From assembly GCA_965207855.1 (NCBI GenBank), contig OZ242310.1, forward strand, positions 3,444,202 through 3,508,201: a DNA stretch of 64,000 nt, written 5' to 3'. A program made the position numbers and the translations under genes. Each line of letters begins with the position of its first letter. Within the stretch, counting starts at the first letter, position 1. The DNA comes from Candidatus Poribacteria bacterium (lineage in GTDB: Bacteria; Poribacteria; WGA-4E; WGA-3G). The notes under the pieces are model-generated. The model was not told the DNA's origin. It ran no database searches and was given only the letters and a program-made list of their open reading frames with translations. This document shows, in pieces, positions 13,006 to 43,277 of the stretch.

Positions 13006-13638
13006 ATGTATAAGTTTCTGTCAACTCAATTTGCCGTATATGGATTAACAATCTCCGCTATCTTAATTGGAATCTTAGCTTTCAGCGGTTGTGGGGGTTC
13101 TAAACAGGTCACTCGCGTTGACGCTGACACCACGATTGATTTGTCAGGACGTTGGAACGATACAGATTCACGTATGGTTGCCGACGAGATTATTGGTGAT
13201 TGTCTGAGCCACCCTTGGATTAACGATCACGGTATAAATACGGGCGGGAAACCCGTCGTGATTGTTGGAGGGATCCGTAATAAGAGTATGGAACATATCC
13301 CTGTCGCTACCTTTATAACCGACATTGAACGGGCATTTATCAATTCTGGGAAAGTCCGTACTGTATCCGGTTCGAGTGAACGTGGCGAAATTCGCGAGGA
13401 ACGTGCTGACCAAGGAGAATTCGCTGCCCTTGAGACTGTCAAACGGATGGGACGTGAACTCGGCGCAGATTATATGATGACTGGCGAAATTAACACCATC
13501 GAAGACCGTGAAGGTGGCGATCAGGTTGTTTTCTATCAGACAGACCTCACTCTGACAAATATCGAAACGAACGAGAAAATCTGGATTGGGAACAAAAAGA
13601 TTAAGAAATTTATCGGGCGCGACAAGTTTAAACTGTAG
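13006..13638 (+). CDS. LpoB-like (COG3417-type) outer-membrane lipoprotein
   Basis: Lipobox LAFSGC. The C-terminal domain resembles the penicillin-binding-protein activator LpoB/FlgO-like fold, recalled from memory. Confidence 0.4.
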   Translation: MYKFLSTQFAVYGLTISAILIGILAFSGCGGSKQVTRVDADTTIDLSGRWNDTDSRMVADEIIGDCLSHPWINDHGINTGGKPVVIVGGIRNKSMEHIPVATFITDIERAFINSGKVRTVSGSSERGEIREERADQGEFAALETVKRMGRELGADYMMTGEINTIEDREGGDQVVFYQTDLTLTNIETNEKIWIGNKKIKKFIGRDKFKL

Positions 13639-13741
13639 GATGTCCGTAACGCCTCTGTTTGAGCGGGGCCCCGTGCCCCTAATCTGTTCGGATGGGTCTC
13701 CGTGCCCACCCGCTCCGACTCGTTTGAAAACTACAAAATAT

Positions 13742-15073
13742 ATGATTAAAGCTCTCCCGTTTCTGCTTATTACCTCTCTACTGATAGGGTGTGGCGGTTA
13801 TAAGTTTTCAGAAGTTATAGCACCTTTGGAGACAGGACAGCCAGAAGCTGCCTATACCTATCTTCAGAAACACGCACCGAAAAACCCTGATATTCCCTTT
13901 CTGTTTGACCTTGGACTCGTTGCCCATTATGCCAACCACTTCACTGAGAGCAGTGCAGCGTTGGATCAAGCCGGAGATATCGCCGAGGATCGCTATACCA
14001 AGAGTGTTTCAAAAGAAGTAACTTCATTGGTTACTTCCGACAAATTGCGTCCGTATGCTGGAACCCGATATGAGCGACTTTTAAGCCACTACTATCGCGC
14101 ACTCAACTATATCTACCGCGGTCAGTTAGACGGTGCCTTGGTGGAATGCCGCCGCGCTACGGCTCTCATTGACTACTTCAAAAGCGATGATAAGTATGAT
14201 TTCTTCGGTGCCGGGTTTCTTGCGAATCTCTCTGGTATGGTTTTTGAGGCCGCAGGCGAATGGAACGATGCTTATATTTCCTACAGACAAGCCGTGGAAT
14301 ACTATCAGAACGCTGCTGAGAAAACCGGTGTACCGATGCCAGCTGACATTGGTAATTCACTCGTGCGGTTGACTCGCAAACTCGGGTTCACCGACGAGTT
14401 TGAGCGTTACCGAAATCAATACGGCGAACCTCCACCGCGTCCTGAAAATACCGGTGAGTTGATTCTCTTTTATGAAAGTGGCTACGTGCCACCCAAAACT
14501 GAAGAGGCTTTGACGTTTCCTATCCTGAAAATAGACAATGTGGAGGACGAAAAGTTTGTTCCGACGCTTGTAGGACGCGAAGGCAGGGTCTATAAGGATG
14601 TCGAATTGGAATATCTCCTACGGGTCGCGATACCCACAATCGGTTCCCTTCGCCCTCGCTTTGCAGGAATCGAGGTGACAGTAGCGCAAAGTCAAGAGAG
14701 AGGCACGCTTGTAGCAGACGTGGAGAGCATCGCCGTAGAGACCTTTAATGCGGAGCGTCCTATCATTCTTCTACGAACCTTAGTCCGCGCTGTAGGGAAA
14801 TACTTGATTTACCGAAAGGCAAACAAGGAAAATGAGGCGTTAGGGCTGCTTGTAAACCTTGCGGGTGCTGTGACGGAGCAGGCGGACACACGCTCGTGGA
14901 AGACGCTACCGAATCAAATTTTTGTCGTGCGGATGCCGGTTCCCGCAGGCACGCATACACTCGATCTCTCTTTTTTAAATGCCAACGGACGAATCAGTCG
15001 ACAAGAATCCGTTCCAGATGTTAAAATTAATCCGAATCGGATAACCTTTCTCAATTACCGAACTTATGAATGA
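13742..15073 (+). CDS. Lipoprotein with TPR-like helical repeats (start re-called at MIKALPF; track ORF is 13586..15073)
   Basis: Lipobox LLIGCGG. It is probably co-transcribed with the LpoB-like gene. Confidence 0.45.
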   Translation: MIKALPFLLITSLLIGCGGYKFSEVIAPLETGQPEAAYTYLQKHAPKNPDIPFLFDLGLVAHYANHFTESSAALDQAGDIAEDRYTKSVSKEVTSLVTSDKLRPYAGTRYERLLSHYYRALNYIYRGQLDGALVECRRATALIDYFKSDDKYDFFGAGFLANLSGMVFEAAGEWNDAYISYRQAVEYYQNAAEKTGVPMPADIGNSLVRLTRKLGFTDEFERYRNQYGEPPPRPENTGELILFYESGYVPPKTEEALTFPILKIDNVEDEKFVPTLVGREGRVYKDVELEYLLRVAIPTIGSLRPRFAGIEVTVAQSQERGTLVADVESIAVETFNAERPIILLRTLVRAVGKYLIYRKANKENEALGLLVNLAGAVTEQADTRSWKTLPNQIFVVRMPVPAGTHTLDLSFLNANGRISRQESVPDVKINPNRITFLNYRTYE

Positions 15074-18112: not shown

Positions 18113-19183
18113 ATGGAAAAGACACATCTACTTCATGCCCCACATCTCCACGCAATTTCACGCAACATATTCGTCGCTGCCGGGGTCTCACGACACATCG
18201 CAGAGGATGTTTCTGAAATCCTGCTCAACGCCAATCTCGCTGGACACGATTCCCACGGCGTACTCCGCATTCCCGCCTATTTGCGCGGTATTGATGGCGG
18301 ATCCCTAAAGCCAACAGCCGAGCCCAAACGCCTTGAAGAAACCGCAAATACCCTGAGCGTTGATGGGCAGGGCAGCTTCGGGCACTATACCTCACGCTGG
18401 TCTATAAAGAAAGCCATTGAGAAGGCAAAAACCGCTGCCTCTTGCTCTGTCAGCATCCGCAACACCGGACATATCGGACGTCTCGGCGAATATGCTGAAG
18501 AAGCAGCAAGAGCCGGATGTATCTCGCTTATCACTGTCGGGGGGGGCGGTAGAGGCAGAGGCCCAACTGTGCCTTTTGGTGGCGCGGAAGGTGCTTTTGG
18601 AACAAACCCCATCGCTATCGGTGTACCTACTGGGGATAGCAGTCCATTTATTGTTGATTACGCCACGAGTATGGTCGCCGAAGGAAAAATTCAGGTCGCC
18701 CGAAGCAAAGGTATTGATTTACCTGAGGGGTGTATCCTTGATAAAGACGGGAATCCGAGCGTCAAACCCGCTGACTTCTACGATGGTGGCTCGCTTCTTG
18801 CATTCGGAAAACACAAAGGCTACGCACTCGCCATGTTTACATGCCTCCTTGGTGGATTGGCAGGAACGTTTGATGTGGAACAAGGTTCAATGAACGGCAT
18901 TTTCATGCAAGCCGTTGATGTCAAAGCCTTCACGCCTGTTGATGAATACCAGAAAGGTGTACGAGCCTTCTTAGATGGCATTAAATCCACACCACCCGCC
19001 CCCGGCTTTGACGAAGTATTAGTTCCGGGTGATTTTGAATACCGATCCCGAACCCAACGGTTAGTGGATGGTATTGAAATACCGGATACCATTTACAATC
19101 AACTCCAGGAGTGTGCAGACAAATTCGGCATTTCTATCGGCGAAGAGATAACCGAGGCGGAAGACAAGGCTCGCTATAAGTAG
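18113..19183 (+). CDS. Ldh_2-family (malate/L-lactate/L-sulfolactate dehydrogenase type-2, COG2055) oxidoreductase
   Basis: Signature segment NLAGHDSHGVLRIPAYL. Length is 356 aa. Confidence 0.75.
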   Translation: MEKTHLLHAPHLHAISRNIFVAAGVSRHIAEDVSEILLNANLAGHDSHGVLRIPAYLRGIDGGSLKPTAEPKRLEETANTLSVDGQGSFGHYTSRWSIKKAIEKAKTAASCSVSIRNTGHIGRLGEYAEEAARAGCISLITVGGGGRGRGPTVPFGGAEGAFGTNPIAIGVPTGDSSPFIVDYATSMVAEGKIQVARSKGIDLPEGCILDKDGNPSVKPADFYDGGSLLAFGKHKGYALAMFTCLLGGLAGTFDVEQGSMNGIFMQAVDVKAFTPVDEYQKGVRAFLDGIKSTPPAPGFDEVLVPGDFEYRSRTQRLVDGIEIPDTIYNQLQECADKFGISIGEEITEAEDKARYK

Positions 19184-19204: not shown

Positions 19205-20242
19205 ATGAAAAGATTTATGTTTGAAGCCGCGGCACTCCAAACGTTCACAAGAAACCTGTTTGTCGCAGCGGATACCCCGCGGCGTATTGCTGATGATGTT
19301 GCTGAAATTTTGATAAAAGCCAATCTCGCTGGGCACGATTCACACGGTGTGTTGCGTATCCCGTCCTACCTTGATGCGATTGAAAACGGAGGGATCCGTC
19401 CAGCTGCTGAACCAGAAATCATCCGCGAAACCGACAACACACTTCATATTGATAGCAGACGCGGTTTTGGACATTATGCAGCACGTTATGCGATCCGTCG
19501 CGCCATTGAGAAGGCGAAAAGCACACGTACCTGCTTCGCAACGCTTACGCATACCAACCATATCGGCAGAGTCGGTGAATACGCACAAGAAGCCGCTGAG
19601 TCGGGGTGTATCGGAATGATCTCGGTCGGGGGCGGCTCAAAAGGCGGCGGACGTATTCTTCCTTTCGGTGGCGCGGTCGGTGCACTCGGCACAAACCCAA
19701 TCGCTATCGGCGTACCGACAGGTGATGATAGACCCTTCCTCATTGATTTCGCAACCAGTATGATTGCCAACGGCAAAACCTACGTCGCTGACAGCGAAAA
19801 TCGAGATTTGCCTGAAGGTTGTGTTGTTGACAAGCACGGCAATCCCACCGTTAAAACTTCCGAATACCGCGATGGTGGACACCTTCTTGCTTTCGGTAGA
19901 CACAAAGGCTATGCGCTTTCTCTTTTCGTCTGTTTACTCGGTGGATTGGCAGGCACATTTAACGTTGAGGCTGGACAAATGGGCGGTCTCTATATGCAGG
20001 TGATTGATGTCAACGCTTTCATGCCACTTGAAGCGTACCAAAAGGGTGTCCGTGCCTTTTTAGACAGTATCAAATCAGTGCCACCCGCTCCGGGTTTTGA
20101 CGAGGTATTAGTCCCTGGTGATTTTGAGGTCGACACCCGCACACACCGCCTCGCAAACGGCATTGATCTACCCGATACCATCTACCAGCAACTCCGCGAA
20201 TGTGCGGAAGAGTGGGGCGTTCCTATGCCTGAATCCCAGTGA
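19205..20242 (+). CDS. Ldh_2-family oxidoreductase, tandem paralogue of 18113..19183
   Basis: About 60% identical to the upstream gene (NLAGHDSHGVLRIPSYL). The 21-nt spacer puts them in an operon. Confidence 0.75.
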   Translation: MKRFMFEAAALQTFTRNLFVAADTPRRIADDVAEILIKANLAGHDSHGVLRIPSYLDAIENGGIRPAAEPEIIRETDNTLHIDSRRGFGHYAARYAIRRAIEKAKSTRTCFATLTHTNHIGRVGEYAQEAAESGCIGMISVGGGSKGGGRILPFGGAVGALGTNPIAIGVPTGDDRPFLIDFATSMIANGKTYVADSENRDLPEGCVVDKHGNPTVKTSEYRDGGHLLAFGRHKGYALSLFVCLLGGLAGTFNVEAGQMGGLYMQVIDVNAFMPLEAYQKGVRAFLDSIKSVPPAPGFDEVLVPGDFEVDTRTHRLANGIDLPDTIYQQLRECAEEWGVPMPESQ

Positions 20243-22105: not shown

Positions 22106-22133
22106 TAATCTATATTTGGAGGTTAAATCGTTA

Positions 22134-23747
22134 ATGATGCTTAAAAAGGTGGTTTATGCCGCGCTGATCCTCTTATTCGTAGGTACGATCTCTACCGTTG
22201 TGTTTGGACACAGCGACCTCCCCACGCTTTTGGAGGATGTCAATAAAGATAGTGTGGTGAACATCCAAGACCTGGTGCTCGTCGCTACTGCTTTCGGACA
22301 ACCCAGAGACCGCAATGCGGAATACGACCCTGATGTCAATCGCGACGGAATCGTTAATGTACTCGATCTTGTTCGCGTCAGTAACGGTTTTGGACAGACT
22401 GCATCGGATGAAAATTCAGCGTATCACGATATTCAGGAATATGTCTTTGATAAGAGTTGTGCGAACAGTGTTTGTCATGCTGCGCCTGCCAACGCGGGTA
22501 ATTTAAATCTGACCTATGGTCTCTCTTATGAAGATTTGATCGTCGGTGTGCCACAGAATCCTGCTGCGGCTGCCGCTGGCATGAAACTCGTAGATCCCGG
22601 CAATCCAGAGAACAGTTTCTTGTTGACGAAACTGATGGGACCCACAGCACCGGAACAAGGCGCACGGATGCCCTTTGCGGGCGGCGTGCTCCACGATGGA
22701 AAAATAGAAGCAATTCGTACCTGGATCGAAGCTGGCGCACCACAGACGGGTAAAGTGATCGGGATGGGGGACCTCGCAGTCTTACGAGACCCTGAAGAAA
22801 TCTTTGAACCACCTGCACCACCACCACCCGGTGAAGGCTATCAACTTCATTTGCCGCCCTTCAGAATCGAACCCGGCACTGAACGGGAAGTATTTTATGC
22901 AACGCAAATCAAAGATGAAAATGGAGAGCCAATAGCGGGTGACATCTTCATAAATAGATATGAGATTTTCTATCCCGTGGGCAGCCATCACTTTATCTTA
23001 TATCGGATGACCGATGCAGCAATCTCAGACGGAATCCTTGAGATTGGCTTAGTTCCCGGAATCGGTGTTGATCCAACAGATCCTTTCCGAGAGTTAGACC
23101 CAGCCGACCCGCAGGCACTTGGAGACGGAGGGATTCATCGCTTCTTCGTTGCCGGATCACAAAGCGACGATCTTTCGCTTGCATTTCCAGAGGGCGTCGC
23201 CCTCCGACTTGCCGGTGATACGCTCTTTGACATGAATTCTCACTTCATTAATTTATTAGGGACCGAAACCCTAATTGGTGAGGCTTATATCAATATCTAC
23301 ACACTTCCACCTGAAGAAGTCACGCATGAGGTAATTGAGATTTTCGTTTCCAACACAGAGATTAACGTCCCGCCCGGGCTGACCCGTGTTAGCAAAATGA
23401 ATTGGTATATTGAAGATGAAATGGAACTGCAAGGCATAGATCCAGGGGCAACATTGAACGTCATGCTGCTCACATCTCACATGCATAGACACGGCGAATT
23501 GTTTGAAATCTTTCAACAGTCAACAGGGGGCTTGTTGCACCGGAGCGTCGCTTATGATGACCCACCGATAACCTTTTATACCCCACCGCTGGCACTTGAT
23601 GCAACCGATGGGCTCAGCTTTCAGTGTACGCATAGCAATTATGATCGGGATGTACCTCTTGAATTCGGTTTTACATCCGAAGACGAGATGTGCCTTATGG
23701 TCGGCTATTATTATGTGCCAACGAAAAGTGTTGCGGACAGTAATTAA
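22134..23747 (+). CDS. Secreted multi-domain protein: dockerin-like repeats + PSCyt1-like domain (degenerate C-x4-CH) + C-terminal PHM/DBH-like putative copper-monooxygenase domain
   Basis: Signal peptide. Two D-x-N-x-D-G/S-x-V-N-x-x-D-L repeats. The segment DKSCANSVCH...MPF..WIEAGAP fits the PSCyt1 pattern. Motifs SHHFILY, NSHFINL, SHMHRHGE and SEDEMCLMVGYYYVP sit at PHM-like spacing. GGAGG RBS; the track ORF begins at 22116. Confidence 0.5.
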   Translation: MMLKKVVYAALILLFVGTISTVVFGHSDLPTLLEDVNKDSVVNIQDLVLVATAFGQPRDRNAEYDPDVNRDGIVNVLDLVRVSNGFGQTASDENSAYHDIQEYVFDKSCANSVCHAAPANAGNLNLTYGLSYEDLIVGVPQNPAAAAAGMKLVDPGNPENSFLLTKLMGPTAPEQGARMPFAGGVLHDGKIEAIRTWIEAGAPQTGKVIGMGDLAVLRDPEEIFEPPAPPPPGEGYQLHLPPFRIEPGTEREVFYATQIKDENGEPIAGDIFINRYEIFYPVGSHHFILYRMTDAAISDGILEIGLVPGIGVDPTDPFRELDPADPQALGDGGIHRFFVAGSQSDDLSLAFPEGVALRLAGDTLFDMNSHFINLLGTETLIGEAYINIYTLPPEEVTHEVIEIFVSNTEINVPPGLTRVSKMNWYIEDEMELQGIDPGATLNVMLLTSHMHRHGELFEIFQQSTGGLLHRSVAYDDPPITFYTPPLALDATDGLSFQCTHSNYDRDVPLEFGFTSEDEMCLMVGYYYVPTKSVADSN

Positions 23748-23812
23748 ATAAATCATGCGAAGCGCGGAATCAATTGGATTACCAAACAAATTTGGAGGTT
23801 GAATTGTTAATT

Positions 23813-25429
23813 ATGATAAGAAAAACAGTCTATTTCACACTCATCACCTTGCTGATGGGCAGCTTCTCTTTTTTCGCACTCGGACACAGCGATCTCCCGA
23901 CGCTGTTAGAGGATGTCAATAAAGACGGTGTGGTAAACATCCAAGACTTAGTGCTTGTTGCTGCTTCCTTTGGACAACTCAGGGATCGTAATGCGACGCA
24001 GGACCCTGATGTCAATCGCGACGGGATCGTTAATGTGCTTGACCTCGTTCGGGTCAGTAACAGTTTTGGACAAACCGTGCCAAGTGAAAATTCAGCATAT
24101 CACGATATTCAGGAATATGTCTTTGATAAGAGTTGTGCCAACAGTGTCTGTCATGCTGCGCCTGCGAATGCGGGTAGTTTAAATCTTACCTACGGTCTCT
24201 CTTATGAAGATTTGGTTGGACAGGTTCCTCTGAACCCAGCCGCCGCGGCTGCCGGTATGAAGCTGGTTGATCCGGGCAACCCGGAGAACAGTTTCCTTTT
24301 GGCGAAATTGATGGGACCCGCAGCACCGGAACTGGGCGCGCGGATGCCTTTTGGCGGCGGTATACTCCATACTGGCAAAATAGAAGCTGTCCGCACATGG
24401 ATTGAGGCTGGCGCACCGCAGACCGGCAAAATAGCGGGTATCGGAGACCTTGGGGTCCTACGCGATCCTGACGAAGTGTTTGAACCGCCCGCGCCACCCG
24501 CCCTCGGTGAAGGCTATCAACTCCGTCTGCCACCCTTCAAGATTGAACCCGGTACGGAACGCGAAATCTACTACGCAACCCAAATCACTGATGAAAATGG
24601 AAACCCTATAGCGGGCGACATCTTTATTAATAGAGTTGAAATCTTCTATCCAGCGGGTAGCCATCACTTCATCGTGTATCGGTTCACTGAAGAGGGCTTA
24701 GCAAACGGGGTCCCAGAGAGAGGAATTACACCCGGAATCGCAGTTGATCCAGCGACGGATAGATTCCGTGAACTGGACCCAGACGATCCGCAAGTGCTTG
24801 GCAATTTTGGTGTTGATAGACTTTTTGTTGTCGGCACGCAGACGGATGATACGCTTTTTGAATTTCCTGAAGGTGTGGGATTACGGATGCCCGGAGACAC
24901 GGTTTACGACCTCAATTCCCACTACATCAATTTGCTTGGGGACGAAACATTGATTGGCGAAACCTACGTCAATATCTACACGATTCCCGAAGAAGAAGTT
25001 CAGTACGAGGCGGTTGAAATTTTCGTTTCTAACAGATCGATTAACGTACCACCCAAAACAACGCGCGTTTCCAAAATGACGTGGTACGTTGAAGATGAAC
25101 TCGAACGCCGAGGACACAACCCGGCAGCGGAATTGAGCGTCTTCTTACTCACATCTCACATGCACAGACACGGTGAGTTGTTTGAAATCAATCAGAGATC
25201 AACCGGGGATTTATTGCACCGAAGCATCGCTTACGACAATGCTCCGATTACTCTGTTTGAACCGATTCTCCGCTTAGGTCCAGACGATGGACTTAGATTC
25301 GAGTGTACCCACAACAACTACGACACGAATGAACCGCTCATATTCGGACTTACATCTGAAGATGAGATGTGCATTATCTTCGGTTATTATTATATCCCGA
25401 CTGAAAGTGCCGGAGAGATCATTAAATAG
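23813..25429 (+). CDS. Tandem paralogue of 22134..23747 (same domain architecture)
   Basis: About 75% identical across all the same motifs (AGSHHFIVYR, NSHYINLLG, TSHMHRHGELFEI, SEDEMCIIFGYYYIPT). The RBS context is also conserved. Confidence 0.5.
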   Translation: MIRKTVYFTLITLLMGSFSFFALGHSDLPTLLEDVNKDGVVNIQDLVLVAASFGQLRDRNATQDPDVNRDGIVNVLDLVRVSNSFGQTVPSENSAYHDIQEYVFDKSCANSVCHAAPANAGSLNLTYGLSYEDLVGQVPLNPAAAAAGMKLVDPGNPENSFLLAKLMGPAAPELGARMPFGGGILHTGKIEAVRTWIEAGAPQTGKIAGIGDLGVLRDPDEVFEPPAPPALGEGYQLRLPPFKIEPGTEREIYYATQITDENGNPIAGDIFINRVEIFYPAGSHHFIVYRFTEEGLANGVPERGITPGIAVDPATDRFRELDPDDPQVLGNFGVDRLFVVGTQTDDTLFEFPEGVGLRMPGDTVYDLNSHYINLLGDETLIGETYVNIYTIPEEEVQYEAVEIFVSNRSINVPPKTTRVSKMTWYVEDELERRGHNPAAELSVFLLTSHMHRHGELFEINQRSTGDLLHRSIAYDNAPITLFEPILRLGPDDGLRFECTHNNYDTNEPLIFGLTSEDEMCIIFGYYYIPTESAGEIIK

Positions 25430-25456
25430 GACCGATTTCATAAATGTGGAGAAGCG

Positions 25457-25486
25457 CGCTTCATAGGCGCGCTTTTCTCTTATCTT
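25457..25486 (+). terminator. Rho-independent terminator AAGCGCGCTTCATAGGCGCGCTTTTCTC
   Basis: An 8-bp GC stem plus a T-run. Confidence 0.6.
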
Positions 25487-25488
25487 AG

Positions 25489-27363
25489 ATGGAAACCACT
25501 CATTCAAGAAAAAATAACTTCATAGATGCCCTCACACATCGGATTTTGGTGTGTGATGGTGCTATCGGAACCGAAATCCGCAAGCAGGTACCAGCACATC
25601 TGCAATGTGTTGATGCCTGTAATATCTCTACTGAATACGCCGAGAAAGTCTCAATGGTTCATCGCGCATACGCTGCTGCCGGTGCCGATGTTATTCAAAC
25701 CAATACCTATCAGGCAAACAGCGAAGCGTTAGCTGTTCACGGCTTGGCTGAGCAGGTTGAAGAAATTAACAGAAGCGGTGTGAGCCTCGCACGTGCTGCT
25801 GTGCCGAAGACTTGCTATGTAGCCGGTTCCGTTGGACCGATCTCTTTCCAAACCTTAGATACCACACTGCCCGCAACGAAGGCAATCAGGCGCATCTTCA
25901 AACAGCAAATGGATGCCCTTGTTGATGAAGGCGTTGATCTTCTCGTCCTTGAGACTTTCGTTTCTCCCAGACAAGCAGAAATCGCCGCGAAGCAAGCCCT
26001 CACTTACGATGTCCCTGTCGTCGTTGAAATCAGTGGCGTTTCAGGCGGCACAGTAGGTGCCGGGGTTGATGTCCGGGTCTTTGCACAAGAGCTCGAACAA
26101 CTCGGCGCACACGCGGTCGGGGTCAATTGCCGCGGTCCACACGACCTTGTCGAGGCGATGGAACTCCTTGCACCTGTCATCAAGGTTCCTATCGCTGTAC
26201 AACCCAACGCTGGCAATCCGAGAGTCGAACAGGGCGAAGTGGCACTCTCTTATACAGTCGAGGCAGAAGTTTTCAGCGATTACGTTGGAAAATTGATTGA
26301 ACTTGGCGCGAACATGATTGGCGGTTGCTGCGGCACGACCCCCGCTTATGTGGCGAAAATCCGTCAGGCTGTTAGAGAACGTGAACCTGTTGAACGGCAA
26401 CAACGGATCTTCGTCCTTCCAAAGATTCGCGCAACCTCGAAAGTCCGGACGGATAATCCTGTGCAACAGGTGTTTGAAACGCGAGAGCAGATCATAAGTG
26501 TTGAAATGCGCGCCAATACATTTCCACAGTTTCGAGCGATGTTGCGTGAGGCGAAAAAACTCGCTGCCATCGGTGTCGATCTGTTTGATGTAACCGACAA
26601 TTCCGGTGCTGCTGTGAATATTGGAGCCGTCGGTACAGCATACCGACTTCAGCAGACAACACAAATTCCGACGCTCATCCATTGGACAACCCGCTCGCGG
26701 AATCTCATTAGTATGCAATCGCATTTACTCGAAGCAGAGGCGTTGGGTATTCGTGGCATTGTTGCGCTCTCTGGCGACCATCCAAAAGTAGGTCCCTATG
26801 AAGCGGCGAGCCTCGTCCCGGATGTCCGAGGTGCCGTTCAATTGATGAAACTCATTGCACGTCTGAATCAAGGTGAACTCGCTGACGGTTCATCTATTGG
26901 CGATCCGTGTGGATTCTATTACGGCGGCGGTTTTACGGTTGCTGAGAACCTTCAACCCCACGTCAAACATCTCACAAATAAGGTGAAGCAAGGCGCAAAA
27001 TTTGCCTATACGCAACCGGTCTGGACTTATGAAGATATCGTTCGGACCCAGCAAGCGACGGAACATCTTGGTATAAAATTGCTTTACGGCATCCTACCGC
27101 TCACCAGTTTCCGCAGTGCCTCCTATCTACGCGACAATTTGGGACTCTATATCCCTCAGTTTATCGTTGACAAATTTCGAGACCTTGAGGATACCGCCGC
27201 ACACGAACTCGGTATCCGGTTGTGTTTGGAGTTAATTCGCGACATCCGTAATCAAAATGAATGTAAAATTGATGGTATCTATCTCATCCCACCTGCTCTC
27301 ATGAATTGGAAAAACAGAGTCAGGATCATCTCAGAGATCGTTAAAACCTACCGTTTTTTTTAA
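25489..27363 (+). CDS. Bifunctional homocysteine S-methyltransferase / 5,10-methylenetetrahydrofolate reductase (YitJ-like fusion)
   Basis: The N-terminal half (ILVCDGAIGTE..GCCGTTP) is a Hcy-binding methyltransferase domain. The C-terminal half is an MTHFR/MetF domain (LSGDHPKVG). Confidence 0.8.
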   Translation: METTHSRKNNFIDALTHRILVCDGAIGTEIRKQVPAHLQCVDACNISTEYAEKVSMVHRAYAAAGADVIQTNTYQANSEALAVHGLAEQVEEINRSGVSLARAAVPKTCYVAGSVGPISFQTLDTTLPATKAIRRIFKQQMDALVDEGVDLLVLETFVSPRQAEIAAKQALTYDVPVVVEISGVSGGTVGAGVDVRVFAQELEQLGAHAVGVNCRGPHDLVEAMELLAPVIKVPIAVQPNAGNPRVEQGEVALSYTVEAEVFSDYVGKLIELGANMIGGCCGTTPAYVAKIRQAVREREPVERQQRIFVLPKIRATSKVRTDNPVQQVFETREQIISVEMRANTFPQFRAMLREAKKLAAIGVDLFDVTDNSGAAVNIGAVGTAYRLQQTTQIPTLIHWTTRSRNLISMQSHLLEAEALGIRGIVALSGDHPKVGPYEAASLVPDVRGAVQLMKLIARLNQGELADGSSIGDPCGFYYGGGFTVAENLQPHVKHLTNKVKQGAKFAYTQPVWTYEDIVRTQQATEHLGIKLLYGILPLTSFRSASYLRDNLGLYIPQFIVDKFRDLEDTAAHELGIRLCLELIRDIRNQNECKIDGIYLIPPALMNWKNRVRIISEIVKTYRFF

Positions 27364-31484: not shown

Positions 31485-32087
31485 ATGGAAACAGACACTT
31501 CAACGCTAAAGGTTTTAATCATTGATAACAATCAAGAGCGAGCAACTACATTAATCCGAATCCTAAAAGCAGGGCGGTACGAAGTTGCTGCACAGCTGCG
31601 TTTGCAGAGGGACTTAATAAGTCAGGTCTCACACTTAAAACCCGACATCATATTGATAGGCGTTGACTTTCTGGGACAGACAATACTTAGTTGGGTTGAG
31701 TCTCTTCACGCAAGCTATCCGTGTCCGATGGTCATGTTTTCGCGGGATGAGCGATCGGAAACGATTCAGGCAGCAACGCGGGCGGGTGTTTCTGCTTATG
31801 CTGTTGGAGAACTCACCGGAGCCAGAGTTAAAACGATCATTGAGGCGGCCGTTGCTCGGTTTTATGAATTCCGGGCATTACAGGAGGAACTTGAGAAAAC
31901 TAAGACAAGTCTCGCCGAACGTAAAATCATTGAGCGCGCAAAGGAGCTCCTCGCTCAACATCGCGGTTGTGACGAGGCACAGGCGTACCAAATTTTACGA
32001 AAGATGGCGATGAATCGCAGAAAACGCCTTGCGGAAGTCTCACAGGAGTTGTTATCTATGGCGGAGGTGTTGACGAATAAATTGTAA
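31485..32087 (+). CDS. nasT: ANTAR-domain response regulator (NasT/AmiR-type nitrate-assimilation antiterminator)
   Basis: Atypical receiver domain plus a C-terminal ANTAR helix pattern (LAERKIIERAKELL...AYQILRKMAMNRRKRLAEV). Confidence 0.75.
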   Translation: METDTSTLKVLIIDNNQERATTLIRILKAGRYEVAAQLRLQRDLISQVSHLKPDIILIGVDFLGQTILSWVESLHASYPCPMVMFSRDERSETIQAATRAGVSAYAVGELTGARVKTIIEAAVARFYEFRALQEELEKTKTSLAERKIIERAKELLAQHRGCDEAQAYQILRKMAMNRRKRLAEVSQELLSMAEVLTNKL

Positions 32088-32289
32088 AAAAATCTTGGTT
32101 AAGAGTTAGAAATTAAGAGACTTCTTTAACAATCCACCTCTTAACTTAAAACTTAAAACAAGAATAGCCCAAACCAAAGGTGGTTTGGGACCAGACATAG
32201 GTGTCTATTGGGTTGAGCTTTCGGTGCAACTTATAAACCGAAACTATATGCTCACCAATAGATACCTTTTTTATTTCCGTCTCTAACTC

Positions 32290-32480
32290 GGTAGGTTCGG
32301 TTTTGCGGCGTACTCGCCCCCGGTTCATGCCCTAAGGCATTCATACCGTTGATTCTGATTTGGAATGCCATACGGCATTCATACCCCGGTTCATGCCCAT
32401 AAGGCATGAATACCGTTGATTTGAAGTCCATACGGACTTCATACCGTTGATTCAAGGCATGAATACCGTTGATTCTGATT
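32290..32480 (+). promoter_or_regulatory. Structured leader of the nitrate-assimilation operon: 4-5 imperfect tandem ~35-40 bp units (GGCAT[TC/GA]ATACCGTTGATT...), each forming a short hairpin
   Basis: Hairpins ATGCC-CTAA-GGCAT, AATGCC-ATAC-GGCATT, TCATGCC-CATAA-GGCATGA, GAAGTCC-ATAC-GGACTTC and GCATGAAT...ATTCATGC. They sit between nasT and nirA. A related ATGCCATACGG word occurs at about 1760. Confidence 0.55.
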
Positions 32481-32546
32481 CATGCGACGTGCATTCCAAC
32501 TGCACCGATTAGAGATTCCACGTGTTTCTGAAGGAGGAGTGATAAA

Positions 32547-34139
32547 ATGAACCAATCGAAAAAGAGGGTTATCCCCGCAAGCCGAAAGGTGCGTTCCGCT
32601 CCCAGTTTAAAGGCACCCGCAGCTGCGAAAAAGCGAAAGTCTAAAGTAAATGCTGCCGAAGTGCTGAAGCGGGAGAAGAATGGATTTGAAGTTATCAATG
32701 ACCTTCCCAATTACATTCGGGACGGATGGGAGTCGATTCCAGCGAACGAGCGCGACCGCCTCAAGTGGGTAGGCGTCTTTTACCGAAAACAGACACCGGG
32801 GGCATTTATGATGCGTCTCCGTATGTCCAGCGGTTTTTCTAATGCCGAGCAGTTTCGCGCGATTGCTGAAATCAGTGAAACATACGGACCCGGATTTGTA
32901 GATCTCACAACACGGCAACAAATTCAGCTCCGCGGTTTCGCTATTGAAAACGTCCAGCATATCTGGAATCGACTTGAGGCGGTAGGTTTGGATTCACTCC
33001 AAACCGGTTTTGACAACATCCGCGGTGTCATCGGATGTCCCGTTGCTGGGTTGACACCGAATGAACTGTTTGATGCGTCGCATGTCGCCAGAGAATTCAC
33101 GAGACTCTTCGTTGGGAACAAGGAGTTTACCGATATTCCGCGCAAGTTTAATGTCGGTATTACAGGATGTCTTGATAACTGCACCCATACGGCTTCGCAG
33201 GATATTGCCCTTACGCCAGCGATAAAGGAAATTGAAGGTCAAGAGACACACGGCTTTAACGTCGCTGTTGGTGGAAAGATGGGGTCTGGTGGCTACACGC
33301 TTGCGAAGCCACTTGATGCGTTTGTTACTCCCAAAGAAGCTGCAGTCTTGTGTGCTGACATTGCCTTGATTTTTCGAGATTACGGAGCCAGGACAGCTCG
33401 AAATAAATCGCGTCTCGCTTTTCTGATTCAGGAGTGGGGGGTAGAAAAATTCCGAGAGGAAGTCGAGACGCGGCGGCACAGAAAACAACCGCTCCTGACC
33501 GCTGGAAAAGATGTGCGCGGCAAAAAGAAAACCGACCATACCGGTATCTTCTCTCAGAAGCAGCCACACCTCAACTATGTCGGACTCGTCGTGCCTGTCG
33601 GACGGATCACGACAACACAACTTTTCGAGGTGGCACGTCTCTCAGATGAATACGGTAACGGCGACATCCGTCTCACGCAGGGACAGAATCTGATTATCAC
33701 CAATGTTCCTGACGAGCGAATCGGGGCCTTAACAGCAGAACCGCTCCTACAGGAACTCCGTTATGATCCCTCGGAAATCATGCGTGGTATGGTCAGTTGC
33801 ACAGGTATCGACTACTGCCACTTCTCGCTCATTGAGACTAAGGAACGCGCCATGGAAGCAATCCGACATTTGGAGGCAAAACTCGGCAATACCAAACCAC
33901 TGACTATCCATTGGTCGGGATGTCCAAACGGGTGTGGCAATCACGCCGCCGCAGACATCGGACTTCTTGGTAAGAGGGTTAAAATTGACGGAGTCGTTAC
34001 CGATGCCGTGGATGTATTCGTCAAGGGGGATGCCAGTGCTAACCCTAAAGTTGCACCGAAGTTATTAGAAAATGTCCCTTGCGACGATCTACCGCGAGTG
34101 CTTGAAGGTCTCGTGCCTTATCTTTCAAGGAAAATTTAA
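32547..34139 (+). CDS. nirA: Ferredoxin-dependent nitrite reductase (NirA; sirohaem/4Fe-4S nitrite-sulfite reductase family)
   Basis: Cys cluster CTGIDYC...SGCPNGC. An N-terminal K/R-rich extension is present. Length is 530 aa. Confidence 0.8.
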   Translation: MNQSKKRVIPASRKVRSAPSLKAPAAAKKRKSKVNAAEVLKREKNGFEVINDLPNYIRDGWESIPANERDRLKWVGVFYRKQTPGAFMMRLRMSSGFSNAEQFRAIAEISETYGPGFVDLTTRQQIQLRGFAIENVQHIWNRLEAVGLDSLQTGFDNIRGVIGCPVAGLTPNELFDASHVAREFTRLFVGNKEFTDIPRKFNVGITGCLDNCTHTASQDIALTPAIKEIEGQETHGFNVAVGGKMGSGGYTLAKPLDAFVTPKEAAVLCADIALIFRDYGARTARNKSRLAFLIQEWGVEKFREEVETRRHRKQPLLTAGKDVRGKKKTDHTGIFSQKQPHLNYVGLVVPVGRITTTQLFEVARLSDEYGNGDIRLTQGQNLIITNVPDERIGALTAEPLLQELRYDPSEIMRGMVSCTGIDYCHFSLIETKERAMEAIRHLEAKLGNTKPLTIHWSGCPNGCGNHAAADIGLLGKRVKIDGVVTDAVDVFVKGDASANPKVAPKLLENVPCDDLPRVLEGLVPYLSRKI

Positions 34140-34142
34140 AAA

Positions 34143-35492
34143 ATGGACATAAAAAATAAAGCAACACACATAAATCTATTTAGCTTAAAAACGATCCAGA
34201 TGCGTACCTTCCATACCACATGGTTCGCCTTTTTCTTAGCCTTTTTTGGATGGTTCGGTATTGCTCCGCTTATGGCGATTATCCGTGAAGACCTGATGCT
34301 AACAAAAGCAGAGGTGGGTAATACTATTATCGCTTCCGTCGCAATTACAGTATTGGTGCGAGTCTTAATCGGACCGCTTTGCGACAAGATCGGGCCTCGA
34401 AAGGCGTATACATGGCTGCTGATTCTTGGTTCACTACCGGTCATGGGTATCGGACTCGCTCAGAATTACGAGACGTTTCTGCTCTTTCGACTCGCGATCG
34501 GTGCAATCGGTGCCTCGTTCGTTATCACACAGTATCACACCTCGGTGATGTTTGCCCCGAATTGTGTCGGCACAGCGAATGCGACAACAGCCGGATGGGG
34601 GAATCTCGGTGGCGGTGTCACGCAGATGGTCATGCCGCTCATCTTTACGGCTATTCTCAGTTTCGGTGTGGACCAATTCCTCGGATGGCGGTTGGCGATG
34701 CTTATTCCCGGTGTCGCGCTATTTATCACTGGATTCGCCTATTACTTCTTTACCAAAGATGCCCCGGATGGCAATTATAAAGAACTCCGTGAACGCGGCG
34801 AACTTGAACCCGCGAAAGGCACAGGTATGGCGTCTTTCATGTCGGCGATTAAAGACTACCGCGTCTGGGCACTCTTTGTTATCTATGCCGTCTGTTTCGG
34901 CGTGGAGCTCACTATTAACAATATCGCCGCACTCTACTATCACGACCAGTTCCAGTTAGATGTCAAGACCGCAGGACTCATCGCTGGACTGTTCGGTTTG
35001 ATGAATATCTTCGCACGGACGGTTGGCGGTGTTTTCTCCGATTTCTTCTCGAAGAGGATGGGGCTCCGCGGGCGTGTCCGGTTCTTATTCTTTGTGCTGT
35101 TAGGTGAGGGGATCATGCTGATAGTCTTTTCGCAAATGGCGGTGCTTATCCTTGCTGTTGGCGCGATGATGGTCTTTAGTCTCTTTGTACAAATGTCGGA
35201 AGGCGCGACCTATGGAATCGTCCCTTTCATCAATAGAAAAGCGTTAGGGGCTGTTGCGGGTATTGTCGGCGCGGGTGGAAATGCGGGTGCCGTTGCTGCG
35301 GGTTTCCTGTTCCGTGCTGAGAGTATCACACTGCAGCAAGGCTTGTTGTATCTCGGTGTGATGGTTACAATCGCCTCGTTCGCTACGGTATTGGTGAAAT
35401 TCTCACCCGTAGTCCAAGCCGCAGAGAAAAAAGCATTTGATGCCGCACTCGCCGAGAGGCAGCGTTTAAAAGCCGAAGGTGCTTTATCCTAA
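34143..35492 (+). CDS. narK: MFS nitrate/nitrite transporter NarK/NrtP
   Basis: NNP signature AGWGNLGGG, with 12 TM segments. Confidence 0.85.
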   Translation: MDIKNKATHINLFSLKTIQMRTFHTTWFAFFLAFFGWFGIAPLMAIIREDLMLTKAEVGNTIIASVAITVLVRVLIGPLCDKIGPRKAYTWLLILGSLPVMGIGLAQNYETFLLFRLAIGAIGASFVITQYHTSVMFAPNCVGTANATTAGWGNLGGGVTQMVMPLIFTAILSFGVDQFLGWRLAMLIPGVALFITGFAYYFFTKDAPDGNYKELRERGELEPAKGTGMASFMSAIKDYRVWALFVIYAVCFGVELTINNIAALYYHDQFQLDVKTAGLIAGLFGLMNIFARTVGGVFSDFFSKRMGLRGRVRFLFFVLLGEGIMLIVFSQMAVLILAVGAMMVFSLFVQMSEGATYGIVPFINRKALGAVAGIVGAGGNAGAVAAGFLFRAESITLQQGLLYLGVMVTIASFATVLVKFSPVVQAAEKKAFDAALAERQRLKAEGALS

Positions 35493-35568
35493 TCTGACTT
35501 CGATCTATAAAACTAACAAATAACCTGATTTTGACTACAAAAAATCGTAAAAAAATTGGTCAATAAAA

Positions 35569-40707: not shown

Positions 40708-40995
40708 ATGGCGAAACGAACGAGATACACCCCCGAGTTTAAAGCAGCAGTCGTGCTGGAGGCCCTCAGCGGTGAAAGTTCAAAGCAGAACTCTGCCGGC
40801 GACATAACCTCAGCGAACAACAACTCTCGAAGTGGAAGCAGCAAGCGATTGAAAACTTTGCGTCTCTGTTTGGCTCCAAGGATAAAGCGTCAGCGGCGGA
40901 TGCGTCGCGTATCGCTCACCTTGAGCAACTCGTTGGGCGTCTCACTGTCGCCTTAGACATTGAAAAAAAAGCCGCGAAGTGGTTGCCCTAACGGC
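40708..40995 (+). pseudogene. IS3 orfA (transposase HTH) carrying an apparent 1-nt frameshift near 40780 in addition to the programmed site
   Basis: Frame 1 gives MAKRTRYTPEFKAAVVLEALSGESS. A second frame continues with the canonical KAELCRRHNLSEQQLSKWKQQAIENF...LDIEKKAAKWLP. Confidence 0.55.
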
Positions 40996-41833
40996 ATCAA
41001 AGAAACGAGAAATGGTGGCAAAAGTGCACAAGGCTTCTTCATATTCGATTCGGCAGATTTGTAAGACCCTCGGCTACAACCGGAATCTTCTCTATTATCA
41101 GCCGAAGCGCCCCCCTTCTCAAGAGGGACTGCGAACGAGAATAGAGGAGTTAGCGGCAACCTATCCAACATACGGATATAGACGTATCACGAAGTTGTTG
41201 GCGGCTGAAGGGCACACCGTTGGGTATAAGCGCGTCGCCCGGTTGATGAAAGAAGCCCATCTCTCGGTGGCTGTCAAACGTGCGTGTCAAACGACCCACG
41301 CCGCTGAGAGTCGGCAACCGTGGCAGAATCGCCTGAAGACCCTTGAGATCTGTCGTTGCGATCAGGTCTGGGTCGGCGATATCACCTACGTCCGCCTCAA
41401 CAGACGCTTCGTTTATGTCGCTCTGCTCATGGATGTCTTCACGCGCATGATTCGAGGGTGGAATCTCAGTCAACACTTGACGCAATCTTTGACCTTGCGC
41501 CCCTTAGAGCAAGCTTTAGACGACAGGGTTCCCGAGATTCATCACTCTGATCAAGGCGTGCAGTATCTTTCAAAGGACTATATCTCACTGCTGAGGCAGC
41601 ATGGCGTTGAGATTTCGGTCGCACACAGAGGACGCCCTTGGGAGAACGGATACGCTGAACGGTTGATCCGCACCCTCAAGGAAGAAGAAGTCCACCTTAA
41701 CGACTATCAGAACATCCACGAAGCCAGAGATCGCATCGAGCATTTTATCACACAGGTGTATCATCAGAAACGCCCACATTCGGCGTTAGGCTATTTGACA
41801 CCTATGGAATTTCAGCAACAAAACTTGTCTTAA
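40979..41833 (+). CDS. IS3 orfB (DDE integrase core)
   Basis: rve-type catalytic core with the DDE residues. Confidence 0.85.
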   Translation: MVALTASKKREMVAKVHKASSYSIRQICKTLGYNRNLLYYQPKRPPSQEGLRTRIEELAATYPTYGYRRITKLLAAEGHTVGYKRVARLMKEAHLSVAVKRACQTTHAAESRQPWQNRLKTLEICRCDQVWVGDITYVRLNRRFVYVALLMDVFTRMIRGWNLSQHLTQSLTLRPLEQALDDRVPEIHHSDQGVQYLSKDYISLLRQHGVEISVAHRGRPWENGYAERLIRTLKEEEVHLNDYQNIHEARDRIEHFITQVYHQKRPHSALGYLTPMEFQQQNLS

Positions 41834-42950: not shown

Positions 42951-42955
42951 GATTG

Positions 42956-43228: not shown

Positions 43229-43277
43229 AATACCCTCCGTTATTGCTAATAAATAATTAGTATTACTTATAATTTAG

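Follow-up and report, generated by a model that had tools for sequence, protein, structure and literature searches.

Two adjacent genes of a Candidatus Poribacteria bacterium, called here A and B, encode proteins that are probably exported three-cofactor oxidoreductases, in which electrons would pass from a haem c to a CuH and then to a CuM copper site for the hydroxylation of C–H bonds outside the cell, the enzyme being tethered through a dockerin. Both genes lie in the 64,000-nucleotide stretch of DNA that was analysed, hereafter the window (assembly GCA_965207855.1, contig OZ242310.1, positions 3,444,202 to 3,508,201, forward strand). Each protein is composed of an export signal, a type I dockerin, a c-type cytochrome module and a C-terminal core resembling those of PHM and DBH (Table 1). 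This is the overall interpretation that a previous sequence-only reading of the same DNA had offered, and its main elements hold.

Table 1. Positions in the window of the two genes, of their domains and of the neighbouring expression signals.
Feature	Position	Strand	Residues and motifs	Evidence
Leader of gene A (translation initiation)	22113..22133	+	ATTTGGAGGTTAAATCGTTA ahead of ATG, GGAGG Shine-Dalgarno	Direct reading
Gene A, dockerin + cytochrome c + PHM/DBH-like protein	22134..23747, stop codon included	+	537 aa	ORF from ATG, Pfam, 73% identity to B
A, Sec-type signal peptide	22134..22208	+	1-25, predicted cleavage after VFG	Sequence inspection
A, type I dockerin	22233..22385	+	34-84, two Ca-loop/helix repeats, DVNKDSVVNIQD and DVNRDGIVNVLD	Pfam PF00404, PDB dockerins
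A, c-type cytochrome module	22416..22757	+	95-208; CANSVCH = C109/C114/H115, predicted axial M179-P180	Alignments, profile matches, PSCyt1 E 0.07
A, PHM/DBH-like binuclear copper core	22830..23720	+	233-529; predicted CuH H285/H286/H370, CuM H449/H451/M519	Profile vs PHM, ligand census
Leader of gene B (translation initiation)	23792..23812	+	TTTGGAGGTTGAATTGTTAAT ahead of ATG	Direct reading
Gene B, dockerin + cytochrome c + PHM/DBH-like protein	23813..25429, stop codon included	+	538 aa	ORF, Pfam, homologues
B, Sec-type signal peptide	23813..23884	+	1-24, predicted cleavage after ALG	Sequence inspection
B, type I dockerin	23909..24064	+	33-84	Pfam PF00404, E 5.7e-10
B, c-type cytochrome module	24095..24436	+	95-208; CANSVCH = C108/C113/H114 (24134-24154), predicted axial M178-P179 (within 24341-24352)	
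B, PHM/DBH-like binuclear copper core	24506..25399	+	232-529; predicted CuH H284/H285 (24659-24670), H370 (24914-24925); CuM H449/H451 (25154-25177), M519 (25355-25372)	Profile vs PHM, AF2, Foldseek, ligand invariance
Terminator-like hairpin	25448..25478	+	14-bp stem, 7 G-C pairs, 19 nt 3' of B stop codon	Consensus scan

The Copper Core

Profile alignments and a predicted model support the presence, in both A and B, of a complete two-domain PHM/DBH-type copper core. The four motifs singled out previously, SHHF, NSH[F/Y], SHMHRHGE and SEDEMC..GYYY.P, are all found in both proteins. The last of them had been taken as a signature of the Cu2_monoox_C domain, and the corresponding Pfam model (PF03712, cut-off 23 bits) indeed matches A with 29.8 bits and B with 38.8 bits, as well as 26 of 39 family members. 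In contrast, the N-terminal copper domain PF01082 gave no match even at E 10, with the whole proteins or the excised region, and this CuH domain is recognised only through profile-to-PDB alignment and fold. The Pfam searches that had been suggested were thus positive for PF03712 and for the dockerin model PF00404, but not for PF01082 or for the cytochrome model PF07635, which remained sub-threshold.

A profile built from the 39 family members matches the PHM chains 1PHM, 1OPM and 8DSN at E-values from 7e-8 to 1e-7 and DBH (4ZEL) at 9e-7. Its positions 182–441 correspond to PHM chain residues 26–280, which cover both copper domains. SHHF falls on the VHHM of PHM (H107/H108), NSHY on QVHY (H172), SHxH on VHTH (H242/H244) and DEM on DEM (M314), all six ligands being aligned with those of PHM, as had been anticipated for the two copper sites. 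These PHM ligand assignments are confirmed, and its two coppers are about 11 Å apart (PMC12164859). Intervals of 84, 80 and 70 residues between the motifs had been announced and said to mirror the PHM layout; those measured in B are 85 (H285–H370), 79 (H370–H449) and 68 (H451–M519). The likeness is only loosely true for the first interval, since H108 and H172 are separated by 64 residues in PHM.

The AlphaFold (AF2) model of residues 95–538 of B has a pLDDT of 87.6 and a pTM of 0.79, its lowest-confidence stretch being the linker between the cytochrome and the core (pLDDT 66–67). The PHM fold that had been proposed could be recognised when this model was compared with the PDB using Foldseek: the best 31 matches are all DBH or PHM (E 3.6e-15 to 8.8e-10), with target-normalised TM values of 0.6–0.67 over about 320 aligned columns for PHM, and the matches ranking next, with E around 1e-5, are viral jelly rolls.

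Conservation of the His and Met positions, another point on which the earlier assignment depended, was followed in 207 homologues (120 from Poribacteria and 87 diverse representatives) and is essentially complete. The five copper His are 100% conserved, except for a single H285Q, and the CuM Met is present in 203 of the 207, with His in the remaining 4. The E-values and this invariance together exclude a chance resemblance. Judging from the ligands, the core would be expected to bind copper and to perform monooxygenase chemistry. A quite different role has been considered, in which the PHM/PNGase-F-like β-sandwich is reused as a binding module of a non-catalytic surface protein, dockerin-tagged like the many "eukaryote-like" LRR and WD40 proteins encoded in Poribacteria loci. 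Such a reuse is barely credible, as eleven cofactor ligands are near-invariant over 28–73% identity, which is unexpected for a mere binding scaffold.

Relationship to PHM and DBH

If A and B are enzymes, one candidate activity is that of a true peptidylglycine alpha-hydroxylating monooxygenase, initiating the C-terminal amidation of glycine-extended peptides made either by the sponge host or by the symbiont. PHM tops the sequence-profile matches, DBH and PHM rank first among the structural ones, and the Poribacteria assignment suggests a symbiont living inside an animal host. The residues lining the substrate site nevertheless make this activity highly improbable. Asn316 and Tyr318 of PHM, which we take from the 1OPM complex to belong to the carboxylate clamp, correspond in the 207 homologues to Ile/Leu and to mostly Phe (also Ile/Tyr), respectively. 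The position of Arg240 is occupied by Thr or Ser, and never by Arg, in the same set. This arginine binds the C-terminal carboxylate of the substrate in PHM (PMC12164859), and its absence means that A and B are not PHM orthologues. In addition, the neighbouring genes include no PAL-like lyase that could serve as a partner. An assignment to PHM proper (EC 1.14.17.3) was thus rejected; on the evidence of these aligned positions, A and B are not peptidylglycine hydroxylases and their substrate is not a glycine-extended peptide.

What is shared with PHM (1PHM, 1OPM), the catalytic core of PAM, is the pair of β-sandwich domains, the CuH HH...H and CuM HxH...M ligands in register, the DEM motif and a YY-rich last strand, at a sequence identity of 13–16%. 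Unlike PHM, A and B are bacterial and exported through a Sec signal, and their electron donor is presumably a haem instead of ascorbate. They carry a fused c-type cytochrome and a dockerin, whereas PAM has a PAL domain and a membrane anchor. Among DBH and MOXD-type monooxygenases, DBH (4ZEL) is the best Foldseek match (E 3.6e-15) and has, like A and B, an accessory domain N-terminal to its PHM-like core. In DBH this accessory domain is a DOMON domain, whose fold is a haem binder in certain other proteins. In A and B its place is taken by a class-I-like cytochrome c bearing motifs for covalent haem attachment, rather than by a DOMON β-sandwich, and the dimerisation domain of DBH has no counterpart.

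The Cytochrome c Module

The module preceding the core is roughly 110 residues long. The pattern CANSVCH ... MPF ... WIEAGAP described in the sequence-only reading occurs in both proteins, as CANSVCH, RMPF and WIEAGAP. Its attribution to the PSCyt1-type "Planctomycete cytochrome c" modules (PF07635) is less secure than first described, the Pfam model being sub-threshold for A (E 0.07, 14.2 bits against 22), not matching B, and yielding weak matches in only 13 of 35 homologous modules. TIGR03806 scores 25.6 bits against a cut-off of 313, and no curated cytochrome c model of Pfam reaches its threshold for the A or B module. In the module profile, C..CH is aligned with the CxxCH of FoxE, of the hydrazine synthase alpha haem domain and of cytochrome c6, while RMP is aligned with the RMP of FoxE and with the NAMP axial Met of cytochrome c6. 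The module combines a CXnCH motif, a predicted distal axial Met and a cytochrome c fold, and is the most constrained portion of the A/B pair (dN/dS 0.064).

The spacing of the haem site varies among homologous modules, with CX4CH in 51, CX2CH in 30 and CX3CH in 8. All three classes retain the two Cys, the His and the Met; with the Pro, these residues are invariant in the family alignments and in every homologue bearing the module. A canonical CxxCH in relatives had been set beforehand as an argument that the longer site is simply degenerate. Such motifs are present, in the 30 modules of distant homologues, and are read here in the opposite sense. Attachment of haem c through CX3CH and CX4CH has been documented (PMC11492766). 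Since CX4CH is an accepted motif and the four residues are retained whatever the spacing, the degenerate site was rejected; the CX4CH of A and B is a length variant under selection and a putative live haem site.

A cytochrome-like module devoid of haem, kept as a structural or targeting domain that is degenerate or stabilised by a disulfide, beside a copper core reduced by small molecules (e.g., ascorbate, as in animals), looks very unlikely, even though the motif is CX4CH and not CXXCH, the Pfam cytochrome models stay below threshold and the isolated cytochrome model has no significant Foldseek match. Cytochrome c maturation genes are absent from the 64-kb window, and a scan of the sampled DNA for the WWD motif was empty. 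From the retained ligands, we infer that the module is occupied by haem.

The closest solved relative of this haem module, by profile comparison, is FoxE of Rhodobacter ferrooxidans SW2 (5MAB). FoxE stands alone and carries two haems at CXXCH sites, whereas the module of A and B is present in a single copy, has a CX4CH site and is fused to a copper enzyme. FoxE being a putative Fe(II) oxidase, A and B might also be oxidases or electron sinks instead of C–H hydroxylases. The haem would then oxidise an external one-electron donor, such as Fe(II) or a reduced host or microbial metabolite, and O2 would be reduced at the copper pair, yielding H2O2 or water; alternatively, electrons would run in reverse, from a substrate oxidised at copper and out by way of the haem. 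That none of the PHM substrate-binding residues is kept, and that no partner reductase is encoded nearby, would be consistent with this scheme, which we regard as unlikely.

Delivery of electrons from haem to copper, as in the hydroxylase reading preferred here, has a precedent. In Cbp2D of Cellvibrio japonicus, the c-type cytochrome domain CjX183 is the reductant of an LPMO, a copper monooxygenase that acts outside the cell (PMC8981238). The analogy is functional: in both cases a small secreted cytochrome c domain would feed electrons one by one to a copper monooxygenase in the extracellular space, and it was counted in favour of haem-to-copper delivery. No homology is claimed, since the target of CjX183 is a mononuclear histidine-brace LPMO carried by a separate polypeptide.

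Export Signal and Dockerin

The N-termini MMLKKVVYAALILLFVGTISTVVFG and MIRKTVYFTLITLLMGSFSFFALG, each followed by H after the predicted cleavage point, were judged by eye to be typical Sec signal peptides, in agreement with the initial description of both proteins; that of A shows a KK n-region, a hydrophobic core and small residues at -3/-1. The two dockerin repeats reported for each protein are also present, as DVNKD[S/G]VVNIQD and DVNRDGIVNVLD. Pfam Dockerin_1 (PF00404, cut-off 22.9 bits) scores 34.6 bits for A and 39.7 bits for B, and PDB dockerins are matched at E 3e-5 to 1e-4. The duplicated Ca-binding loop and helix, as well as the PF00404 score, are shared with cellulosomal type I dockerins (2Y3N_B, 2B59_B). 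These are C-terminal, whereas the dockerin of A and B is N-terminal and is found in a Gram-negative-type sponge symbiont without a cellulosome. No cohesin stood out in the window, nor in related loci totalling about 1.3 Mb. Dockerin-tagged peptidases are encoded in Poribacteria loci as well, along with the LRR and WD40 proteins mentioned above.

Breadth of the Family

The homologues of B number 653 and are headed by proteins of Candidatus Poribacteria. The sequence-only reading knew of no bacterial PHM-like domain fused to PSCyt-like and dockerin modules. Only the dockerin is restricted in this way and, as far as the homologues indicate, it is a lineage-specific addition; the cytochrome + PHM-like fusion itself is common, since 90 of the 150 best representatives of clusters at 50% identity have it. 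It occurs in Poribacteria, Bacteroidota, Latescibacterota, Gemmatimonadota and marine metagenomes, and is annotated as hypothetical in every case. The family is widespread in bacteria yet unstudied. A Por_Secre_tail (T9SS tail) is present in 14 of 39 family members, and the wider family also includes lipoprotein signals and N-terminal PKD, Big, FG-GAP or dockerin modules; these features point to an extracytoplasmic location.

Proposed Mechanism

The Sec signal peptide would first direct the protein out of the cytoplasm, where one haem would be attached covalently at C-ANSV-CH, with His114 and Met178 (B numbering) as axial ligands, and two coppers would load into the PHM/DBH-type core. Through its N-terminal type I dockerin, the enzyme may be tethered to a partner, presumably a cohesin at the cell surface. 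The fused cytochrome c would then accept single electrons from a donor that is external or lies in the periplasm, and hand them on to CuH (H284, H285, H370), standing in for the animal ascorbate/cytochrome b561 supply. From CuH they would reach CuM (H449, H451, M519), where O2 would be activated and a C–H bond of an extracellular substrate hydroxylated. The family seems to carry its own electron donor. When the neighbourhoods of family members were compared, no conserved neighbouring gene was found in any lineage, which was counted in favour of self-sufficiency.

More tentatively, A and B could stand for a class of haem c/CuH/CuM monooxygenases not recognised before, self-sufficient and working outside the cell, in which the fused cytochrome c replaces the animal ascorbate/cytochrome b561 line and which, in sponge symbionts, would be docked by the dockerin at the cell surface and hydroxylate host-derived molecules (amines, peptides or matrix components). 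If this is true, the family would form a large untapped reservoir of C–H-oxidising enzymes, and its haem would offer a natural means of triggering and following the entry of electrons into a non-coupled binuclear copper site.

The Gene Pair

A and B had been described as adjacent paralogues of about 75% identity; they are indeed adjacent, at the positions first given, with an identity of 73% by BLASTP (392/535). The conserved ribosome-binding site attributed to the pair was also recovered: the leaders upstream of the two ATGs are near-identical, with the consensus ATTTGGAGGTT[A/G]AAT[C/T]GTTAAT, and TGGAGGTT[A/G]AAT is retained upstream of the orthologues in 48 Poribacteria loci. Since the A–B intergenic gap contains no hairpin comparable to the one located 3' of B, the two genes may be co-transcribed. 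Their whole-gene dN/dS is 0.12, with a saturated dS; both copies are thus maintained under purifying selection, and their preferences for substrate or partner are probably no longer the same.

The C-Terminal Copper Core

The sequence-only reading had taken the C-terminal ~300 residues of the neighbouring paralogues A and B for a copper monooxygenase domain resembling peptidylglycine alpha-hydroxylating monooxygenase (PHM) and dopamine beta-hydroxylase (DBH), and this part of it was borne out by profile, structural and conservation analyses. The motifs that it listed were all found in both proteins, at the positions it gave. Among the Pfam families that it named, Cu2_monoox_C (above the curated cut-off) and Dockerin_1 (above threshold) were recognised in A and B, PF01082 matched neither protein, and PSCyt1 gave a weak match in A only (E 0.07). 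A single-sequence phmmer search of the PDB reached PHM at an E-value of only about 0.8, and detection thus required a family profile, built from 39 sequences that are 28–73% identical to B. This profile retrieved PHM chains with E-values of 7e-8 to 1e-7, the alignments extending across both copper domains, and DBH with an E-value of 9e-7. In the alignment, SHHF of A and B corresponds to VHHM of PHM (ligands H107/H108), NSHY to QVHY (H172), SHxH to VHTH (H242/H244) and DEM to DEM (M314), which are the copper ligand sets described for PHM (PMC12164859).

The proposed structural comparison led to the same enzymes. An AlphaFold2 model of B residues 95–538 (pLDDT 87.6, pTM 0.79) was searched against the PDB with Foldseek. 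DBH and PHM accounted for the whole of the best 31 matches (E 3.6e-15 to 8.8e-10, with alignments of about 320 columns), and viral jelly rolls came next, with E-values near 1e-5. No solved bacterial family member was present among the PDB matches of either the profile or Foldseek. Conservation of the His and Met positions was followed in 207 homologues, 120 from Poribacteria and 87 representing 50%-identity clusters: the five copper His are invariant except for a single H285Q (B numbering), and the copper Met is found in 203, the remaining four having a His. Since predicted fold and ligand set agree, the A/B core is assigned to the PHM/DBH superfamily. The same ligand invariance contradicts a role as a non-catalytic binding scaffold, to which we give almost no credence.

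Superfamily membership does not make these proteins PHM orthologues. PHM Arg240 clamps the C-terminal carboxylate of the substrate (PMC12164859); its position is occupied by Thr or Ser, never by Arg, in the 207 homologues, and the positions of Asn316 and Tyr318 are hydrophobic in the family. Because the Arg240 equivalent is absent, A and B are not considered PHM orthologues, and a peptidylglycine hydroxylase identity was rejected. A genuine peptide-amidating PHM, against which the lack of a PAL partner also speaks, is thus very improbable.

The Cytochrome Module

The middle module had been likened to the PSCyt1 cytochromes. The cytochrome part of this proposal stands, the PSCyt1 match itself being weak and TIGR03806 far under its cut-off. 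Residues C108, C113, H114, M178 and P179 of B are invariant in the family alignments and in every module-bearing homologue. In profile alignments, the C..CH of the module fell on the CxxCH of three haem proteins, namely FoxE, hydrazine synthase alpha (in its C-terminal haem domain) and cytochrome c6. The RMP of the module was matched to the axial Met region, NAMP, of cytochrome c6. Judged by these ligands and alignments, the module is a predicted c-type cytochrome.

Among the modules located ahead of a PHM-like domain, the haem motif is CX4CH (as in the CANSVCH of A and B) in 51, CX2CH in 30 and CX3CH in 8, all three being documented haem c attachment motifs (PMC11492766). Relatives with a canonical CxxCH, which had been put forward as a possible sign that the site is degenerate in A and B, do therefore exist; a degenerate haem site is nevertheless rejected, all ligands being invariant. 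Their conservation in every spacing class, together with the lowest dN/dS in the protein, points to CX4CH as a functional length variant and not as decay. It also seems quite improbable that the module is structural and haem-free, with the copper reduced by small molecules. The domain and cofactor assignments of A and B are held with high confidence.

The cytochrome module is also encountered in stand-alone arrays of 2–5 tandem copies (cluster representatives P0150, P0163-P0168, P0170, P0182, P0187, P0194, P0195, P0222 and others). CX4CH and CX2CH are often mixed in one protein, and a second-copy motif, C..[PMQ]FCH, is recurrent. These arrays look like an uncharacterised multihaem family.

Proposed Electron Route

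In A and B, one polypeptide unites the canonical CuH and CuM ligand sets with a haem c site that has His and Met as its ligands, all strongly constrained. CuH is the electron-transfer copper of PHM. In the mechanism proposed here, the fused cytochrome would be the electron entry, passing single electrons to CuH; CuH would reduce CuM, where O2 would be activated and a C–H bond of an extracellular substrate hydroxylated. The cytochrome fusion would take the place of ascorbate, which to our knowledge is generally absent from both the periplasm and the extracellular space of bacteria. We lean towards this full route, from haem c through CuH to CuM. A functional precedent is CjX183, a secreted c-type cytochrome domain feeding copper monooxygenases, the LPMOs (PMC8981238). 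Model confidence is lowest in the linker between cytochrome and core (pLDDT 66–67).

The likeness of the haem module to FoxE and the absence of the PHM substrate residues would also suit an oxidase that reduces O2, or else an electron sink for which Fe(II) or a different reductant is the driver, a reading that we consider unlikely. The finding is of interest to researchers on both copper enzymes and symbiosis. Every characterised PHM/DBH member is, as far as we know, eukaryotic and ascorbate-dependent. Bacterial members that bring their own c-type haem would represent another way of feeding such enzymes in ascorbate-free compartments, and this haem would provide a spectroscopic handle on inter-copper electron transfer. 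Electron entry to CuH and the crossing of ~11 Å to CuM are still debated (PMC12164859).

Dockerin and Export

An export signal was recognised by inspection in both proteins. The dockerin seen in the sequence-only reading was confirmed by the Dockerin_1 matches, and cellulosomal dockerins were the best matches in a single-sequence PDB search. The motif is N-terminal in 72 of the 78 homologues of the sampled related loci. The two most divergent of these homologues, at about 50% identity, have a lipoprotein signal in its place; one comes from L069, titled only 'uncultured bacterium', and the other from the Poribacteria locus L072. The Latescibacterota/Gemmatimonadota homologues L078 7728-9176 and L079 7680-9176 (about 38–41% identity) start instead with DFDGDGxVGFSDF / DLNDDGxVxFxDF, a DxDxDG pair for which Pfam gives at most a weak EF-hand (L079) or no match (L078). 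The dockerin version is restricted to Poribacteria plus a small number of relatives.

Dockerin_1 is also carried by LRR, Big_1 and DUF3108-like proteins among the Poribacteria neighbours. Some of the LRR + Big_1 proteins have a metallopeptidase-like domain, and the dockerin-tagged proteins often finish with FlgD_ig/Por_Secre_tail (T9SS-like) domains; in the WD40 protein of locus L052, the dockerin motif was found by pattern match only. No cohesin was noticed in these loci. In this phylum, the dockerin is thus a tag common to a whole set of secreted proteins. The enzyme sits in this phylum within a dockerin-tagged secretome that includes LRR and WD40 'eukaryote-like' proteins, and thus may act on molecules of the host and matter for the chemistry between sponge and symbiont.

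The Gene Pair and Its Surroundings

A and B are 73% identical across 535 residues. Their whole-gene dN/dS is 0.12 by the Nei-Gojobori method, with synonymous sites saturated (dS about 1.5), and the ratio per domain is 0.09 for the dockerin, 0.064 for the cytochrome module, 0.088 for the PHM N-domain and 0.15 for the PHM C-domain. These values indicate an old duplication with purifying selection on both copies; a pseudogenised duplicate is ruled out by the ratio of 0.12. The leaders before both ATGs are almost identical (ATTTGGAGGTT[A/G]AAT[C/T]GTTAAT), and TGGAGGTT[A/G]AAT is retained 5' of orthologues across Poribacteria (48 related loci) despite the synonymous saturation between A and B; this leader may reflect either a strong Shine-Dalgarno context typical of the phylum or a signal specific to the gene. 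A terminator-like hairpin follows B, and a consensus scan found none comparable between A and B, which makes their co-transcription plausible.

Coordinates of the genes and sites discussed (window positions unless a related locus is named)
Feature	Position	Strand	Remark
Tandem Ldh_2-family paralogues (malate/L-lactate dehydrogenase-like)	18113-19183, 19205-20242	+	
Leaders	22113-22133 (A), 23792-23812 (B)		TGGAGGTT[A/G]AAT, 10-13 nt before ATG
Gene A	22134-23747	+	ORF, 537 aa
Gene B	23813-25429	+	ORF, 538 aa
Terminator-like hairpin	25448-25478		14-bp stem, 19 nt past B stop codon
Homocysteine S-methyltransferase + MTHFR	25489-27363	+	single-ORF fusion, directly 3' of B
ANTAR response regulator	31485-32087	+	
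NIR_SIR sirohaem-type reductase	32547-34139	+	
MFS transporter	34143-35492	+	
Molybdopterin NasA-like reductase	35569-37677	+	
Insertion-sequence transposases, rve/IS3-type and DDE_Tnp_1	40979-41833 (+), 49908-51101 (-)		
HTH/MUG113 protein	42057-42950		low-GC stretch
AAA_35 ATPase	43561-45171		low-GC stretch
Other dockerin-tagged Poribacteria proteins	L001 1197-4157; L031 1495-6015; L071 1230-2588; L051 1787-3247; L052 14919-16727		related loci

The nearest homologues of B (78–100% identity) come from Candidatus Poribacteria MAGs and are called 'hypothetical' or 'dockerin type I domain-containing'. Scanning one genome per GTDB species with a 10-sequence alignment as query gave 305 related loci, the best 80 of which comprise 73 from Poribacteria, 3 from 'uncultured bacterium', 3 from Latescibacterota and 1 from Gemmatimonadota. 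Several MAGs have at least two paralogues per genome. The A+B tandem is confined to the three closest genomes (L003, L042, L044); outside these, the B-type gene stands alone at the locus, with A-type or more distant paralogues elsewhere.

Two Ldh_2 dehydrogenases, an SDR and a GT2 glycosyltransferase lie upstream of A in the window, and the methyltransferase/MTHFR fusion and a DUF6785 membrane protein downstream of B. These window neighbours are unrelated metabolic genes only, with no conserved reductase, copper chaperone, cohesin or PAL-like lyase as partner. The Poribacteria paralogues occupy at least five distinct gene contexts with no common partner gene, and the contexts in Leadbetterella, Bacteroidota, a hot-spring Poribacteria MAG, another MAG and marine contigs have nothing in common. 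A WWD-motif scan of the sampled DNA gave no match for cytochrome c synthetase genes.

In L046 and L047, too, the A-type paralogue has an Ldh_2 gene just 5' of it, which suggests that the A copy relocated jointly with its Ldh_2 neighbourhood. An MTHFR gene adjoins the Bacteroidota homologue of L083; its proximity to both this homologue and B is probably a coincidence. At L081, a 201-aa unknown protein is encoded immediately 3' of the homologue. In one MAG (L084 2294-5734, minus strand), the cytochrome-PHM-like gene is divergent from genes for an unknown protein of 487 aa and a CCP_MauG dihaem peroxidase of 632 aa, and a CutA1 gene is present as well. None of these L081 and L084 neighbours is repeated at any other locus examined.

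Breadth of the Family

With B residues 95–538 as query, 1.84 billion cluster representatives were searched exhaustively by HMMER. Matches numbered 4653 at E <= 1e-3, and 976 of them reached E <= 1e-10, some of the latter via the cytochrome module alone. The best 150 include 88 proteins with cytochrome and PHM-like domains, 2 with two cytochrome modules and a PHM-like domain, 11 with the core only (mostly fragments) and about 45 tandem arrays of the cytochrome module alone. Decorations depend on the lineage: lipoprotein signals, T9SS tails (14 of the 39 profile members) and N-terminal PKD/Big_9, Big_7, FG-GAP, DUF4214, DUF5648 or an extra, true PSCyt1 module. Such signals, tails and modules all imply an extracytoplasmic location.

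Named members come from Poribacteria, Leadbetterella, Chitinophagales, Bacteroidota and marine metagenome, and are all called 'hypothetical protein' or 'T9SS type A sorting domain-containing protein' in their sources; no NCBIfam model covers the family. A full-text literature search on bacterial PHM/DBH homologues, Cu2_monoox domains and cytochrome-fused copper monooxygenases retrieved nothing relevant, an absence that is only suggestive since most subscription journals lie outside its coverage. The finding is not categorically new: each of the three modules is known, and the bacterial pairing of haem c with a PHM/DBH core is widespread, without functional annotation in the sources checked.

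Other Features of the Window

A 495-aa ORF with no Pfam match at E 1e-5 (13586-15073, plus strand) lies 3' of an LpoB-like lipoprotein gene. The low-GC stretch at 42001-44000 (GC 0.42), flanked by the rve/IS3-type and DDE_Tnp_1 transposases, is a possible mobile or defence islet. An assimilatory nitrate/nitrite reduction cluster occupies 31485-37677 on the plus strand.
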